A stretch of DNA of 64,000 bases from Candidatus Woesearchaeota archaeon (GTDB lineage: Archaea; Nanobdellota; Nanobdellia; Pacearchaeales; GW2011-AR1): contig CAYOYN010000002.1 in the NCBI GenBank assembly GCA_964408235.1, forward strand, positions 44,459 to 108,458, written 5' to 3'. The position numbers were made by a program, and so were the translations under genes. Positions 563 to 54,665 of the stretch are shown one piece after another. The notes below the pieces were generated by a model. It worked only from the letters and a program-made list of their open reading frames with translations, was not told the origin of the DNA and did not search any database. Positions within the stretch are counted from its first letter, which is position 1. The number at the start of each line of letters is the position of its first letter.

Positions 563-637
563 GCTCCCGTAGCTCAGCCTGGATAGAGCATCGGACTTCT
601 AATCCGAGGGTCGTAGGTTCAAATCCTATCGGGAGCG
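563..637 (+). tRNA. tRNA-Arg (anticodon TCT)
   Basis: Cloverleaf folds by hand: acceptor GCTCCCG/CGGGAGC, D arm GCTC..GAGC, anticodon stem TCGGA/TCCGA with loop CTTCTAA, T arm GTAGG-TTCAAAT-CCTAT, discriminator G. No encoded CCA. Confidence 0.85.
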
Positions 638-723
638 TTAACAAGGATTTGAACATCCTGAAGTGAGAAAGTCACTTCAGTCCCTCAAACTTTTCCAAGT
701 CTTGAAGAATCCTATCGGGAGCG
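622..723. repeat. Direct repeat of tRNA-Arg(TCT) 3' end: AATCCTATCGGGAGCG at 622-637 and 708-723, with a hairpin at 658-680
   Basis: 16/16 nt identity seen directly. Between the copies lies a perfect 9-bp inverted repeat, CTGAAGTGA-gaaag-TCACTTCAG. Confidence 0.85.
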
Positions 724-736
724 TTTTAGAGTTGAA

Positions 737-7547: not shown

Positions 7548-10007
7548 ATGAAGACCGTGAACTTTTCTACGATTGATAAAAAATGGCAGAAAGAATGGGA
7601 AAAGTCAAAGATCTTTGAGTCTAAAGAAGACCGTAAGAAGGAAAAATATTACGTTTTAGAAATGTACCCCTATCCTTCAGCTCATGGATTGCATATGGGC
7701 CATGCATTCAATTATACTATAGGAGATATTGTTGCAAGATTTATGAAAATGAACGGTAAATCAGTTCTTCATCCAATGGGTTTTGATAGTTTTGGGTTGC
7801 CTGCAGAAAACGCTGCAATAAAGGAAGGAACTCACCCAAGAAAATATACTGATGTTGCAATAAAAAGATTTATTGAACAACAAAAAGCTTTGGGGTTGAG
7901 TTACGATTGGTCTAAAAAAATACAAAGTCACGATCCTAACTATTACAAATGGAATCAATATTTCTTTTTGCAATTTTTAAAAAAAGGTCTTGCTTATAGA
8001 AAGGAATCTCCTGTTAATTGGTGTTCAAAATGCGAGAGTGTTTTAGCAAATGAACAAGTTCATGATGGAAAATGTTGGAGGCATAACGATACAGAGGTAA
8101 TTGTTAAAAATTTAGAGCAATGGTTCATTAAAACAACAAAATATGCTGAAGAACTTTTGAGGGATGTTGATTCTTTGGACTGGCCTCAAAGGATTAAATC
8201 TATGCAAAAAAATTGGATTGGAAAGAGCGAAGGAACTGAAGTATTATTTGAAATAGAAGGAGAAAAATGGCCTGTTTTTACAACAAGAGTAGATACATTA
8301 TTTGGAGTTACTTTCTTAGTTGTTAGTGCTCAACACTCTAAACTTTCTGAATTAGTCACTAAGGAACAGAAGAAGCATGTTGATGCTTTTTTGAAAAAAG
8401 TCAAAAGTACTAAACAAGAAGATATGGACAAAATGGATAAAGAGGGAGTATTTAGTGGGAGTTATGCTATTCATCCTTTGACAGGTAAGAAAGTCCCCAT
8501 ATGGATTGGAAATTTTGTAGTTGCAGATTATGGGTCGGGCATTGTAATGGCTGTTCCTGCCCATGATTCTCGTGATTTTGATTTTGCTAAGAAATATGAC
8601 ATTCCATTAATTCAAGTAATAAAGCCTGTTAAGGTAGAACATGCAAAAAGTAAATTATTTGAAGATTTTGGAATTTTAACTAACTCTCATGATTTTAACG
8701 GCTTGACTAGTGAAGAAGCTATAAAACATATTCAGGTGGTTTTGAAGGAAAGAAAGCTTGGAGGAGCAGTTACAAATTATAAATTGCGCGATTGGTTAAT
8801 CTCTAGACAAAGATATTGGGGAACACCTATTCCTATAATTTATTGTAATGATTGTGGTGTTGTTCCAGTTCCGGAAAAAGAATTACCTGTTTTATTGCCT
8901 GAGAAGGTTACATTTGGAAAGGGGAACCCTCTTCTTACTAATGAAAAATTCGTAAATTCAAAATGTCCTACTTGTGGTAAGAATGCAAGACGTGAAACTG
9001 ACACGATGGACACTTTTATGGATTCTAGTTGGTATTATATGAGGTTTACTGATCCAACTAATAATAAAATGCCTATAAGTGTAGATTGTGTTAATTATTG
9101 GATGCCTGTTGATTTTTACAGCGGTGGTGCAGAGCATGCTTGTATGCATTTAATTTATGCAAGATTTTTTACAAAGGCTTTACGTGATTTGGGTTATTCG
9201 AAAGTTAATGAACCATTTGTAAAATTGTTTAATCAGGGAATGCTTCATGGGGAAGATGGTTTTGTTATGTCCAAATCTAGAGGTAATGGGGTCGATCCTC
9301 TTGATGTTAGTAAGAAGTATGGTGCAGATACATTAAGGTTATTTTTAATGAGTGTTGCTTCTCCAGATAAAGATTTTACCTGGAGTACTACAGGTGTTGA
9401 GTCCATGTATAAATTTGTTAGTCGTGTTTGGGATTATGCTCATAAGGTAAATTTCGAAAAATCTTCTGCTAGAATTAAGCACAAGTTGAATAAAGGGATT
9501 ATCCAGATTGGAGAAGATATAAAAAATATTAATTATAATTTGGCTGTAATTAAGTTGCGTTCTTTATTTGATAGTTTTGAGGATCAAATAGATAAGGCGG
9601 ATTTTGCAACCTACTTACAGCTTCTTTCTCCATTTGCTCCGCATATTGCCGAAGAGTTGTGGCACAATGTTTTAGGATATGATACTTTTGTAAGTGATAG
9701 TGATTGGCCTATCGCAGATAAAAGTAAAATAAATGATTCAATTGATGTAGCCGAAGAAAGTTTTGAAAAAACGGTTTCAGATATTCAGAATATCTTAAGA
9801 ATTATCAAGGAAAAAGATGGTAAAGATGCTAAACATATTTATCTTTATACTATTCCTCCAGAAGTAAAGAACTTTGATAAAGAAATATTATCTAAAAGGC
9901 TCGGGATTGATGTAAGCATATTTGCTGTTAACGATAGTAAAAAATATGATCCCTCTTCTAAAGCAACTAAGGCAAAACCTGGAAAACCTGCAATTTATGT
10001 AGAATGA
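7548..10007 (+). CDS. leuS: Leucyl-tRNA synthetase, archaeal type
   Basis: Class I HIGH-type motif (PYPSAHGLHMGHAFNYTIGD) and KMSKS motif (VMSKSRGNGVDP). Confidence 0.9.
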   Translation: MKTVNFSTIDKKWQKEWEKSKIFESKEDRKKEKYYVLEMYPYPSAHGLHMGHAFNYTIGDIVARFMKMNGKSVLHPMGFDSFGLPAENAAIKEGTHPRKYTDVAIKRFIEQQKALGLSYDWSKKIQSHDPNYYKWNQYFFLQFLKKGLAYRKESPVNWCSKCESVLANEQVHDGKCWRHNDTEVIVKNLEQWFIKTTKYAEELLRDVDSLDWPQRIKSMQKNWIGKSEGTEVLFEIEGEKWPVFTTRVDTLFGVTFLVVSAQHSKLSELVTKEQKKHVDAFLKKVKSTKQEDMDKMDKEGVFSGSYAIHPLTGKKVPIWIGNFVVADYGSGIVMAVPAHDSRDFDFAKKYDIPLIQVIKPVKVEHAKSKLFEDFGILTNSHDFNGLTSEEAIKHIQVVLKERKLGGAVTNYKLRDWLISRQRYWGTPIPIIYCNDCGVVPVPEKELPVLLPEKVTFGKGNPLLTNEKFVNSKCPTCGKNARRETDTMDTFMDSSWYYMRFTDPTNNKMPISVDCVNYWMPVDFYSGGAEHACMHLIYARFFTKALRDLGYSKVNEPFVKLFNQGMLHGEDGFVMSKSRGNGVDPLDVSKKYGADTLRLFLMSVASPDKDFTWSTTGVESMYKFVSRVWDYAHKVNFEKSSARIKHKLNKGIIQIGEDIKNINYNLAVIKLRSLFDSFEDQIDKADFATYLQLLSPFAPHIAEELWHNVLGYDTFVSDSDWPIADKSKINDSIDVAEESFEKTVSDIQNILRIIKEKDGKDAKHIYLYTIPPEVKNFDKEILSKRLGIDVSIFAVNDSKKYDPSSKATKAKPGKPAIYVE

Positions 10008-32871: not shown

Positions 32872-34263
32872 TTGCTTATTTTTGATTACATTATGAATAA
32901 ATTAAAATGTGGCCTTGAAATACACACTTATCTTTTGACTAATGAAAAACTTTTTTGTAGATGTAATGCATCTCGTGAGAGGGGACTTGAGCCAAATATC
33001 TTGATTTGTCCAATTTGTACTGGGCAACCTGGTGCAAAACCTATGTCTCCTAATTTAGCTGCTATTGAAAAAGCTGTTAAGATTGCTTTAATGCTTGGGT
33101 GTAAGGTTAACGATGCAATGCCTTGGATGAGGAAGCATTATGACTGGCCTGACTTACCAAAAGGATACCAAAATACCATGAGTGGTGCTCATGCTACTCC
33201 GCTCGGAGTAAATGGCAAATTCGAAGGAATTACTATTGAAAGTATGCACTTGGAAGAAGATCCTGCAAGTTGGGATCCAAAAACTGGATCTGTAGATCAT
33301 AATAGGAGTGGTTTGCCATTAGTTGAAATTGTAACTGCTCCTGAATTTACTTCTGCGGACGAGGTTTATTACTGGGTTAACAAATTAGTTCATGCTTTGA
33401 ATTATCTGAAGGCAATTGACACAAATGCGGGAGTTAAGGCTGATGTTAATGTTTCGATAGTCGATCAAAATGGTAAACAAAAAACTGAAAGGGTCGAAAT
33501 CAAAAATATAACTTCTATTGAAGCTATGAAGTCTGCTGTTCTTTATGAATTTGATAGGCAGATCAAAGAAGGAAGTGTTCGTGAGACTAGAAGATACGAT
33601 GAAGCTAAGGGTATTACTATGAGGATGAGAGGTAAGGAAAAAGAAGATGATTATCGATTTATAGTTGATCCAGATTTAATGTCTGTAAATTTAAAGAAGT
33701 CTTTTATAGATGAACAAAAAAGGTTGATTCCTGAATTGCCAAGCGTTAAACTCGAGAAATTGATTAAGAAATATAAAATAGATTCTATTAATGCTTTAGT
33801 TTTAGCTAGGGATGTTGATATAGTCTCTTTTTTCGAGAAGGTTGCTGAAAAAGTGGAGGGTAAATTTGCTTTACCATGGGTTACTGTGGAACTTCTTAGG
33901 GTTTTGAATTATAACAATAAAAAATTATCTGAAGTTTCTATTTCCGTAGATCATTTCATTAGGTTATTGAATCTGGTTAAAGATAAGAAAATAACTGAAC
34001 TACAAGCTAAACAAATATTGAATAAATTTATTCCTGAAAGTTTTGACCCTTCTAAGACTGAAGGTAAAATTGAAAGTGAAAAAGAACTTGTCCCAATTAT
34101 TTTAAAAGTTTTGAAAGAACAAGAGAAAGTTGTAATTGATTATATTAATGGAGATATTAAGTCTTTTAATTATTTGATTGGGGAAGTTATGAAAGCTACT
34201 AATAGGCGTGCGGATTCCAATGTCGTTCGTAAATTGCTTGAAAAATTAATAAAAAACAAATGA
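32872..34263 (+). CDS. gatB: Asp/Glu-tRNA amidotransferase subunit B
   Basis: GLEIHTYL...KLFCRC...ICPICTGQPGAKP; both Zn-Cys pairs present. 463 aa. Confidence 0.8.
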   Translation: MLIFDYIMNKLKCGLEIHTYLLTNEKLFCRCNASRERGLEPNILICPICTGQPGAKPMSPNLAAIEKAVKIALMLGCKVNDAMPWMRKHYDWPDLPKGYQNTMSGAHATPLGVNGKFEGITIESMHLEEDPASWDPKTGSVDHNRSGLPLVEIVTAPEFTSADEVYYWVNKLVHALNYLKAIDTNAGVKADVNVSIVDQNGKQKTERVEIKNITSIEAMKSAVLYEFDRQIKEGSVRETRRYDEAKGITMRMRGKEKEDDYRFIVDPDLMSVNLKKSFIDEQKRLIPELPSVKLEKLIKKYKIDSINALVLARDVDIVSFFEKVAEKVEGKFALPWVTVELLRVLNYNNKKLSEVSISVDHFIRLLNLVKDKKITELQAKQILNKFIPESFDPSKTEGKIESEKELVPIILKVLKEQEKVVIDYINGDIKSFNYLIGEVMKATNRRADSNVVRKLLEKLIKNK

Positions 34264-34273
34264 CCTCACGAGG
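34261..34273. repeat. Partial copy (12/13 nt) of the tRNA-Arg(TCG) 3' end, 85 bp downstream of that tRNA
   Basis: TGACCTCACGAGG here versus TGACCCCACGAGG at 34359-34371 (the tRNA 3' end on the minus strand). Overlaps the gatB TGA stop codon. Confidence 0.7.
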
Positions 34274-34358
34274 TACTCGCTGATGGACATCATTGGTAAC
34301 TTCAAAACAAGCATATTTTGAAGTAATCCAACCTCTTCTCGGTTCGATTTAAATAAAA

Positions 34359-34431
34359 TGACCCCACGAGGAATCGAACCTCGATCACAGGATCCGAAGT
34401 CCCGTATTCTAATCCATTAAACTATGGGGTC
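34359..34431 (-). tRNA. tRNA-Arg (anticodon TCG)
   Basis: Reverse complement folds: acceptor GACCCCA/TGGGGTC, anticodon stem CGGGA/TCCTG with loop CTTCGGA, T arm CGAGG-TTCGATT-CCTCG, discriminator A. Confidence 0.8.
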
Positions 34432-34470
34432 TTAACTTTGCGAAGTGATTTGTTTTTTAAAACTATTGTA

Positions 34471-54560: not shown

Positions 54561-54611
54561 ACGTCCCCTGCTGGACTCGACTTGACAAAAGACGTCCCCT
54601 GCTGGACTCGA
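54561..54611. repeat. Perfect 20-nt direct repeat ACGTCCCCTGCTGGACTCGA (54561-54580 and 54592-54611); the second copy is the 3' end of tRNA-Asn
   Basis: 20/20 identity, 11-bp spacer. Seen directly in the sequence. Confidence 0.85.
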
Positions 54612-54665
54612 ACCAGCGACCCCGCGGTTAACAGCCGCGTGCTCTACCTGCTGAGCTAAGAGGAC
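54593..54665 (-). tRNA. tRNA-Asn (anticodon GTT)
   Basis: Reverse complement: acceptor GTCCTCT/AGGGGAC (one G-U pair), anticodon stem CGCGG/CCGCG with loop CTGTTAA, T arm GCTGG-TTCGAGT-CCAGC, discriminator G. Confidence 0.85.

Follow-up and report, generated by a model that had tools for sequence, protein, structure and literature searches.

The gatB stop codon lies within a second copy of the tRNA-Arg(UCG) 3' end

The window, by which we mean the whole 64,000-nucleotide stretch of Pacearchaeota DNA analyzed here, carries gatB on the + strand (32893..34263) and a functional, intron-less tRNA-Arg(UCG) gene on the - strand (34359..34431), the latter called by ARAGORN, scoring 64.9 bits against the Rfam tRNA family and showing 0 changes among 5 strains. 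The last 13 nt of the tRNA, which comprise the 3' strand of the T-stem, the 3' strand of the acceptor stem and the discriminator (copy 1, 34359-34371, TGACCCCACGAGG on the + strand), form a direct repeat with TGACCTCACGAGG at 34261-34273, matching it at 12 of 13 positions. In tRNA sense this second copy (copy 2, - strand, 34261..34273) reads CCTCGTGAGGTCA and corresponds to tRNA positions 61-73. When the A-rich flank was included, a repeat search widened the match to 18 of 21 positions. The TGA of gatB (34261-34263) is the start of TGACCTCACGAGG on the + strand, that is, the last 3 nt of copy 2, and the gatB product ends in ...KLIKNK* in the window versus ...KLIKK* in the related L002.

Between the copies lie 85 nt of inserted DNA (34274..34358, - strand) with neither an open reading frame nor an Rfam family. 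A T-run, TTTTATTT in tRNA sense (34351..34358, - strand), abuts the tRNA 3' end; from its sequence it is probably an archaeal oligo-T terminator, in which case the spacer would probably lie outside the tRNA transcript. Nine nt past the tRNA end is an inverted copy of the T-arm (34341..34349, - strand, or to 34350 including a further T), where the + strand reads GGTTCGATT(T), the reverse complement of tRNA-sense AATCGAACC. The spacer also contains a degenerate direct pseudo-T-arm (34322..34335, - strand), in which GAGGTTGGATTACT matches the tRNA's GAGGTTCGATTCCT at 12 of 14 positions (p = 0.046), and a perfect 9-bp hairpin (34299..34324, no strand assigned) formed by ACTTCAAAA and TTTTGAAGT (tRNA sense) around an 8-nt loop. 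An initial annotation had described a 12/13 partial copy of the tRNA 3' end, 85 nt away and overlapping the gatB TGA, with an inverted T-loop segment at 34341-34350 between the copies, and the coordinates bear out both observations.

The extra DNA is absent from the sister species

We compared the locus with L002 and L277, the closest other species sampled, whose GatB is 90% identical to that of the window. Both lack the whole 98 nt and have neither spacer nor copy; the junction reads gatB-TAA-AAA-tRNA 3' end, leaving the tRNA 3 nt from the gatB stop. In the window, copy 2 and its flank align with the tRNA 3' end next to gatB in L002 and L277, to which they are orthologous. On the promoter side of the tRNA, the window and L002 are likewise orthologous and almost the same in sequence, which places the extra DNA between the tRNA body and its former 3' end. 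The 98-nt segment is an insertion relative to the sister species. With all loci taken together, empty (attB-like) sites were seen in L002, L277, L007, L266 and L264, and the clean ones in L002, L277, L007 and L266 establish an insertion/deletion difference at the tRNA 3' end. According to the initial annotation, finding unrelated sequence here in related genomes would speak against its reading; the alignment gave clean empty sites, and a copy orthologous to the old tRNA end.

The insertion is present in all strains of the window's own species. Copy 2 occurs as three different alleles, the result of three point mutations in its C-run, among strains that are 99% identical. Across 5 strains we counted 6 variable sites in the 98-nt insert and 18 in 1579 nt of flanking coding sequence. 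The insert, the most variable stretch of the locus, thus varies ~5 times more than the flanking genes and is therefore probably a non-functional relic. Within the window's species, the displaced copy 2 is fixed and decaying.

Similar modules recur at other tRNA genes and in relatives

The tRNA-Arg(UCU) gene (563-637) is followed by a module on the + strand (622..724) in which an exact 17-nt repeat, AATCCTATCGGGAGCGT, occurs at 622-638 and 708-724. The module also contains a 9-bp hairpin and, at 644-654, an inverted T-loop, AGGATTTGAAC. Its two repeat units are identical over 17 nt, and the following 17 nt differ at ~6 positions. The same module is found in strains L278 and L279, and L254 has the inverted T-loop only. 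At tRNA-Asn (54593-54665), the module on the - strand (54562..54611) consists of an exact 19-nt repeat, TCGAGTCCAGCAGGGGACG, at 54593-54611 and 54562-54580, separated by a 12-nt spacer (54581-54592). L266 has an empty site here, whereas L267 carries an insert with a different spacer; apart from this 31-nt tRNA-Asn insert, the two strains are separated by only 2 nt in 1450. Both tRNA-Asn inserts have a spacer of exactly 12 nt and share its first 6 nt. The shared architecture that had been proposed for the other tRNA-Arg gene and for tRNA-Asn is thus correct, with repeats that are exact over 17 and 19 nt.

A like architecture at tRNA-Arg(UCG) was also present in the relatives L006, L012, L019 and L028. 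The downstream copy in L012 is identical to the L007 tRNA end, while the functional tRNA of L012 has a different, self-consistent acceptor stem in which both strands are changed relative to L007. This difference between the L012 copies, together with the divergence of the tRNA-Arg(UCU) units past 17 nt, argues for imported rather than locally copied DNA.

Over the loci, repeats of 13-20 nt start in or just after the T-loop, at positions 54-61, and end at the discriminator (position 73) or 1-10 nt beyond it, and the spacers measure 12-108 nt. In five loci other than the window's tRNA-Arg(UCG) the repeats are exact over 16-20 nt. Exact inverted T-arm copies lie 2-32 nt past the tRNA, at 13 to 27 nt from the T-loop, and in L254 and L036 an inverted T-loop is present without any repeat. 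The spacers are rich in perfect 8-11-bp hairpins, those of the window and L019 contain direct pseudo-T-arms, and the Arg modules carry ACTTC...GAAG hairpins with GAAG directly before the repeat. Insertions of this kind have happened repeatedly at other tRNAs of this Pacearchaeota lineage, some of them recently.

Two further candidate observations were set aside. A seemingly chimeric tRNA in L009, considered as a sign of an incoming 3' end, is probably an assembly chimera, since L261, with the same GatB protein, has a self-consistent tRNA and an N-run lies nearby in the L009/L260 scaffold. We also considered whether the window and the L266 lineage had recently exchanged their tRNA-Asn region horizontally; local identity was high but not clearly anomalous.

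The repeats exceed background rates

We measured how often such repeats arise by asking whether any 13-mer of a 24-nt tail recurs with at most 1 mismatch in the 150 nt downstream, which is a permissive test. In 706 kb of Pacearchaeota DNA, 7 of 44 tRNA genes were positive (~16%, or about 1 in 6), the window contributing 3 of its 5, as against 0.87% of random positions, or 0.45% for tails of at least 50% GC, and 0 of 19 tRNAs in unrelated control loci. Of 47 distinct tRNA flanks, 9 had an inverted T-arm copy of 9 nt or longer in the first 45 nt downstream, versus 0.32% of random positions. The initial annotation had named a comparable background away from tRNAs as evidence against its view; at random positions the rate was 0.5-0.9%.

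That the repeat is a chance near-match in an AT-rich genome is a reading to which we give next to no credence: a single 12/13 match within 150 nt does have that background under the permissive test, but the positive tRNAs include long exact repeats, the inverted T-arm accompanies the repeat, and the entire segment is an indel versus the sister species. The tRNA survey, the random-position rates and the empty sites effectively refute it.

Searches for an element, an integrase and free copies

The initial annotation had envisaged genomes in which an integrative element sits between the tRNA and the partial copy. Among ~50 related loci we found no kb-sized element between the repeats, and no second copy of any tRNA end within ~10 kb. 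No integrase adjoined the repeats, either in the open reading frame list of the window or in a crude motif scan of the 706 kb, which returned a single tyrosine-recombinase-like open reading frame, in L034, away from any tRNA. Seven spacers searched with blastn-short against the 706 kb matched only themselves and one orthologous pair, so that a dispersed MITE family was rejected. Searches with attP-like junctions, repeats and tRNA fragments gave no match among the 2.9 million viral contigs of IMG/VR, a collection that we assume may be poor in DPANN elements, besides one chance match to a GC-rich contig, and the spacer had no meaningful similarity to phage records. The 15-mer GAGTTGAAGTATTCC, too short a pattern, hit ~200 loci in viral and metagenome collections; 0 of 214 matches had the inverted T-loop in module context, and the 2 that passed a string filter were unrelated by eye. 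Of the integration reading, then, the partial duplication, the shared architecture and the empty sites stood, and the element and its integrase were not found. With no element, no nearby integrase, no attP match and inserts of 12-108 nt, the term archaeal integrative element would apply here only by analogy.

Insertion into the T-arm as the favored explanation

Integrated elements classically leave partial tRNA copies as their footprints, and annotation often mistakes these for genes. The account that we favor, with a little less than even confidence, is of recurring insertion that displaces the old tRNA 3' end, with recombination by a mobile element as its most likely cause. A segment of ~98 nt, in which 85 nt follow a replacement T-stem and acceptor 3' end, would have been inserted into the T-arm of the resident tRNA-Arg(UCG) gene, which would have stayed intact because the incoming DNA brought a new 3' end. 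The original 3' end would have been pushed to the gatB side, where it would persist as an attR-like relic that provides the gatB stop and decays. A mobile element that targets the stretch of tRNA genes between the T-loop and the 3' end may have done this by site-specific recombination and left a miniature remnant; by analogy with known systems, we infer a recombinase or mobile element as the agent and take the spacer to be what remains of it. Consistent with this account are the empty sites, the narrow range of repeat starts, the recurrence at 7 of 44 tRNA genes, presence and absence between near-identical strains, copies that differed from the start, and a relic that is not conserved.

The modules resemble the attL/attR repeats that integrases leave in tRNA genes in several respects. 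What is repeated directly is the 3' portion of the tRNA, starting in or just after the T-loop and running to or just past the tRNA end; the upstream copy regenerates a functional gene, while the downstream partial copy keeps the older or native sequence; related genomes have empty sites, and several tRNA species are affected. Williams is said to have described, in 2002, a T-loop class of tRNA att sites (the "T-loop sublocation") with just such a pattern of starts and ends. Of the canonical sublocations for such repeats, namely the anticodon loop, the T-loop and the 3' end, those found here use the T-loop. The modules differ from integrase products in that repeats of 13-20 nt surround only 12-108 nt, in the lack of a recombinase gene, and in the tRNA-specific inverted T-arm copy just past the tRNA. 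Tyrosine-integrase cases, in contrast, involve elements of ~9-23 kb with an integrase and repeats of ~44 nt (PMC9897764). The variable distance from T-loop to inverted copy counts against a fixed recombinase core, and the equal 12-nt tRNA-Asn spacers that share 6 nt are not predicted by random decay of a large element.

The casposon of Aciduliprofundum boonei offers another comparison, with a target-site duplication at the 3' end of tRNA-Pro that is fixed at 15 bp and overlaps the tRNA by 5 bp (PMC5137440). There too insertion is guided by the T-loop region of the tRNA and a direct duplication is made at integration, and the casposon enzyme can also insert short DNA duplexes (PMC5137440). Unlike the casposon duplication, the repeats described here vary between 13 and 20 nt and lie almost wholly inside the tRNA, rather than having the fixed 14-15 bp, mostly downstream of the tRNA, of Cas1-type integration. 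No convincing inverted termini were seen by eye at the modules, and no Cas1 or PolB was noticed.

Repair, gene replacement and function as alternatives

A local product of replication or repair, made without any mobile element, is a serious if unlikely alternative. A stalled fork or break at a heavily transcribed tRNA gene would be repaired at the T-arm hairpin, where snap-back synthesis or a switch of template would invert a copy of the T-arm, build perfect hairpins and copy the 3' end again as the direct repeat. Template-switch and snap-back repair at quasi-palindromes produces short inserts of inverted and direct copies of neighboring sequence with perfect hairpins and no mobile-element genes, and the modules resemble these products on each count: exact inverted T-arm copies lie close to the tRNA, direct pseudo-T-arms and abundant perfect hairpins occupy the spacers as snap-back synthesis would give, the spacers are locus-specific with no dispersed copies, and no integrase is near. 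An HNH nuclease gene at the tRNA-Asn/mnmA site in L269-271 further indicates that nuclease genes visit such sites. Against repair, most of each spacer beyond a 9-11-nt T-arm piece has no local template, and neither do the 12-nt tRNA-Asn spacers. The copies may also differ from the start, as in the acceptor stem of L012 and in the tRNA-Arg(UCU) units, which are identical and then sharply divergent where a fresh local copy should match uniformly. A related candidate, that the spacer is an inverted whole tRNA, was rejected; only the 9-11-nt T-arm piece is solid, and the L006 alignment is longer but has many gaps.

Gene replacement, which we regard as improbable, would have brought in a foreign or duplicated tRNA allele with part of its downstream flank, the conserved tRNA acting as a homology anchor and the other end being joined illegitimately within the resident T-arm, so that the module would be the stump of an older, possibly intron-bearing copy. 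The L012 tRNA, with both acceptor strands changed while its downstream copy keeps the L007 sequence, fits this scheme, as does the alternation of intron-containing and intron-less tRNA-Arg(UCG) alleles among relatives. By eye, the ACTTC...GAAG hairpins of the Arg modules resemble anticodon-loop/intron pairing. The window spacers were weakly similar to the L010 intron (p about 0.04), as was the tRNA-Asn spacer to its own leader (p = 0.015), but neither similarity was significant after multiple testing, and the idea that a spacer is a copy of the tRNA leader or of the relatives' intron was dropped. Illegitimate joins, moreover, should not all land at positions 54-61, and the spacers contain no second promoter or recognizable 5' half.

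It is very improbable that the module is a functional RNA or DNA element. As such it would be a 3' trailer structure that takes part in termination or processing, or offer a decoy tRNA end, or else be a T-loop intron of non-canonical type with the downstream copy as the real 3' exon. Folding was better than that of shuffled sequences (z = -3.2 in L006 and -4.2 in the window, at -30.5 kcal/mol), one hairpin has compensatory stems and a conserved loop between L006 and L012, and L254 and L036 keep an inverted T-loop without a repeat. The lineage has a splicing endonuclease and canonical tRNA introns, and extra T-arm-region sequence partly complementary to an exon recalls archaeal non-canonical introns and split or permuted tRNA genes. 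Unlike those, the modules have an upstream copy that already completes the tRNA and a mutated downstream copy, and no bulge-helix-bulge (two 3-nt bulges and a 4-bp helix) was found in any equivalent register of five modules. Used as the 3' exon, copy 2 would fail to pair with the 5' acceptor strand, breaking acceptor pairs in all three window alleles and in L012, and a T-loop intron or split tRNA was accordingly rejected. The T-run directly after the tRNA, the variability of the module and its absence from the sister species also speak against function. Only the tRNA itself passes Rfam, other matches falling far below gathering scores even at E <= 10, and a known RNA family was likewise discarded.

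Implications for tRNA loci in Pacearchaeota

The footprints described here are miniature and mark ~16% of tRNA genes in the loci sampled from a little-studied DPANN lineage, often with an exact inverted T-arm copy, and even strains that are almost identical differ in them. Should a recombinase or mobile element be the cause, the scars would mark integration sites of still unknown Pacearchaeota elements, and the putative attB/attP halves would serve as search sequences. If no element was involved, the tRNA genes of these reduced genomes would be hotspots of unusual repair.

We offer, as a speculation that is unlikely to hold, that Pacearchaeota have an active, previously undescribed micro-insertion process at the segment from T-loop to discriminator, which would duplicate that segment and add 12-108 nt through an unrecognized recombinase or nuclease acting in trans, or through repair where selfish elements that target tRNAs have cut. 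Alleles formed in this way may shield the tRNA gene, in that separating the old flank would destroy the landing or cleavage site and leave the tRNA intact. The three independent C-run mutations of copy 2 and the strain difference at tRNA-Asn might then reflect ongoing conflict, not neutral decay.

Whichever agent was at work, the neighboring gene has been altered, with the stop codon of gatB now coming from the scar. The tRNA loci of this lineage turn over fast, through inversion, intron gain and loss, and insertion.

Identification of an insertion scar at the tRNA-Arg(UCG)/gatB locus

The interval 34261-34431 holds an old scar, now decaying, that belongs to a recurrent class of such mini-scars found at the 3′ ends of Pacearchaeota tRNA genes. 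The tRNA-Arg(UCG) gene lies on the minus strand (34359-34431). Its last 13 nt, copy 1 (TGACCCCACGAGG on the plus strand, 34359-34371), are matched at 12 of 13 positions by copy 2 (TGACCTCACGAGG, plus strand, 34261-34273), which begins with the plus-strand gatB stop codon TGA (34261-34263) and is separated from copy 1 by 85 nt. Read in the sense of the tRNA, the repeated piece comprises the 3′ strands of the T-stem and acceptor plus the discriminator, and the spacer runs from a T-run through an inverted T-arm copy (AATCGAACC; plus-strand positions 34341-34349) and a degenerate direct pseudo-T-arm (34322-34335) to a perfect 9-bp hairpin (34299-34324). The initial annotation had described the repeat, its overlap with the gatB stop and the inverted T-arm, and all of these elements were right when we rechecked the coordinates.

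A 25-nt inverted repeat (34250-34274 and 34435-34459; 80% complementary, 12 nt exact and A-rich) encloses the tRNA together with its leader and the module. The promoter-plus-tRNA unit is inverted in the window and in the related loci L002, L277, L010, L024 and L027, and lies on the gatB strand in most relatives. The inverted repeat might have served as the substrate for this inversion or be what it left behind, or it might be a mere A-rich coincidence.

Insertion and decay beside gatB

When relatives were aligned over the interval, two sister-species assemblies (L002 and L277; GatB 90% identical to that of the window) had an empty site with the same junction. In both, the gatB stop, AAA and the tRNA 3′ end follow in direct succession, the 98 nt of the module are absent, and the sequence on the promoter side of the tRNA hardly differs from the window's. 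Because copy 2 with its flank (AAAAAACAAATGACCTCACGAGG) aligns to the L002 junction (AAAAAATAAAAATGGACCCACGAGG), copy 2 is the tRNA end at its original place; the functional tRNA now has a new 3′ end, 98 nt farther from gatB.

All five assemblies belonging to the same species as the window (L272-L276; GatB 99% identical) carried the module. Among these and the window, copy 2 had three alleles, GACCTCA (window), GACCACA (L272, L273, L274 and L276) and GACTCCA (L275), each one step away from the GACCCCA of the tRNA. When the window was compared with four of these assemblies, variable sites numbered 6 in 98 nt of module, 11 in 984 nt of gatB, 7 in 595 nt of pepN, and none in the tRNA (73 nt) or promoter (53 nt). 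No other part of the locus is thus under as little constraint as the module, and this speaks against a function. We consider it likely that the feature is a non-functional insertion scar. The three copy 2 substitutions fall on two neighbouring bases of a C-run (34265-34266) among strains about 99% identical; such clustering could mean either that these bases are hypermutable or that selection disfavours an exact duplicate of the tRNA end.

Recurrence at other tRNA genes

The same architecture had been claimed at a second tRNA-Arg and at tRNA-Asn, and it is indeed present there: two of the window's other four tRNAs have exact versions of the repeat (17 nt and 19 nt, respectively). At tRNA-Asn (module 54562-54611) a 12-nt spacer precedes the 19-nt repeat. 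Two related assemblies, L266 and L267, differ here by 2 nt in 1450 nt (99.9% identity) and by a 31-nt insert of spacer plus repeat, present at 3148-3178 in L267 and empty at about 9960 in L266. The L267 repeat equals the window's, while its spacer (TCTTTTTCCCTA, versus TCTTTTGTCAAG in the window) is of equal length and shares only the first 6 nt, TCTTTT. At the same intergenic site, between tRNA-Asn and mnmA, L269 (9512-9977), L270 and L271 carry a stand-alone ORF of 104 aa that contains an HNH motif (Pfam E = 7.6e-4; 20 bits, slightly under the 21.4-bit cut-off) and has no repeat flanking it; their tRNA-Asn, interrupted at position 37/38 by a 25-nt intron, is miscalled as tRNA-Tyr by ARAGORN.

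At tRNA-Arg(UCU), the 17-nt repeat lies 69 nt downstream, and 5 nt past the tRNA there is an inverted T-loop of 11 nt. Strains L278 and L279 keep the repeat intact with two changes in the spacer; in L254, which is more distant, nothing but the inverted T-loop follows the tRNA. Past copy 2 of the window's module is a degenerate inverted T-loop (AGAGTTGAAC, 725-738), orthologous to the perfect one in L254 (AGGATTTGAAC, 9193-9207). Since L254 has no repeat there, an inverted T-loop may belong natively to the 3′ flanks of some tRNA-Arg genes; in L036 one lies 32 nt past the tRNA.

Among relatives, tRNA-Arg(UCG) has a repeat of 16 nt in L006 (exact) and L012 (two mismatches), 13 nt in L019 (about 22 nt with the trailer) and 20 nt in L028, and a decayed form in L013 and L016. 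A 13-mer from the last 24 nt recurred within 150 nt downstream, with at most one mismatch, at 7/44 tRNA genes; the background rate of such near-matches was 0.87% at random positions and 0.45% for GC-rich tails, and 0/19 tRNAs of unrelated control loci were positive. Inverted copies of the T-arm, 9 nt or longer and no more than 45 nt downstream, occurred at 9/47 distinct tRNA flanks, all tRNA-Arg, and at 0.32% of random positions. Some positive loci are orthologous, making both counts partly non-independent, but the excess is still much too large to be put down to chance. As a single locus the tRNA-Arg(UCG) scar is ordinary.

Origin of the inserts

Repeats that start at the T-loop and run to the end of the tRNA are said to have been linked by Williams, in 2002, to the T-loop class of tRNA att sites. 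Together with empty sites, several tRNA targets and a "native" downstream copy, such boundaries are, by analogy, what site-specific integration leaves at tRNA genes; PMC9897764 gives examples of such integration. In our preferred reading, a site-specific insertion brought a replacement tRNA 3′ end and left copy 2 as an attR-like relic. In contrast to such integration, however, the inserts here are tiny, no recombinase was found, the spacing from T-loop to inverted copy varies (13-27 nt), and both 12-nt tRNA-Asn spacers are alike in their first six bases. The integrative origin proposed in the initial annotation held in part: the shared architecture, empty sites and insertion favour it, but in about 50 related loci we found neither an element between tRNA and partial copy nor a gene for an integrase, and nothing kb-sized or any second repeat farther away. 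Four scans of a viral collection gave nothing real for attP-like junctions or the repeats themselves. We attribute the insertion to a recombinase or mobile element only tentatively.

The L012 downstream copy (…TGGGGCCG) matches the tRNA end of L007, a relative in which the site is empty and the gene downstream is the same; the acceptor stem of the functional tRNA in L012 differs from it and is consistent within itself (GAGCCCA/TGGGCTC). The tRNA-Arg(UCU) units are identical over 17 nt and diverge sharply beyond. Both cases are easier to reconcile with DNA brought in from outside than with copying on the spot. Hairpin-rich, partly self-templated spacers such as these would be expected from template-switch or snap-back repair, but a local template is absent for most of the spacer sequence, and we regard this route as unlikely. 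Displacement of the resident tRNA by a foreign or duplicated allele, leaving a stump, is more doubtful still, as hints that the spacers came from an intron-containing copy were not significant. A T-loop intron (no register with a bulge-helix-bulge motif; the downstream copy would disrupt acceptor pairs), a known RNA family (Rfam search) and a dispersed miniature element (no dispersed spacer copies in 706 kb) were ruled out.

The locus in related genomes

Comparisons used 38 gatB loci of GTDB species representatives and further loci found through GlyRS and MnmA homologues. The tRNA-gatB linkage is kept throughout the clade, with 3 nt to about 6.6 kb between the two genes. Canonical introns at 37/38 (about 23 to about 90 nt) occur in the tRNA-Arg(UCG) beside gatB in L010, L028, L031, L032, L035 and L036; other lineages, including the window, have none, and ARAGORN without its intron option overlooks several intron-bearing genes. 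L009/L260 (14013-14087) and L261 (8391-8463) encode identical GatB proteins and differ in the tRNA-Arg 5′ acceptor strand and upstream sequence, with an A3:C70 mismatch in the L009 version; because N-runs lie close by in both scaffolds, the difference probably reflects a chimera assembled from co-occurring strains. The L005 contig ends (4460-4468) within the T-loop of tRNA-Arg(UCG), which would fit strain heterogeneity starting exactly there and breaking the assembly.

The window has a G+C content of 32.6%, and TTTAAA boxes of the archaeal type lie about 25-30 nt 5′ of its tRNA genes. The nearest relatives of its GatB, GlyRS and MnmA come from MAGs labelled Pacearchaeota, Nanoarchaeota or Woesearchaeota, all DPANN archaea. 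The longest gatB ORF begins at TTG (32872) and the public-assembly gene at ATG (32893); an exact look-up matched the ATG-32893 version only.
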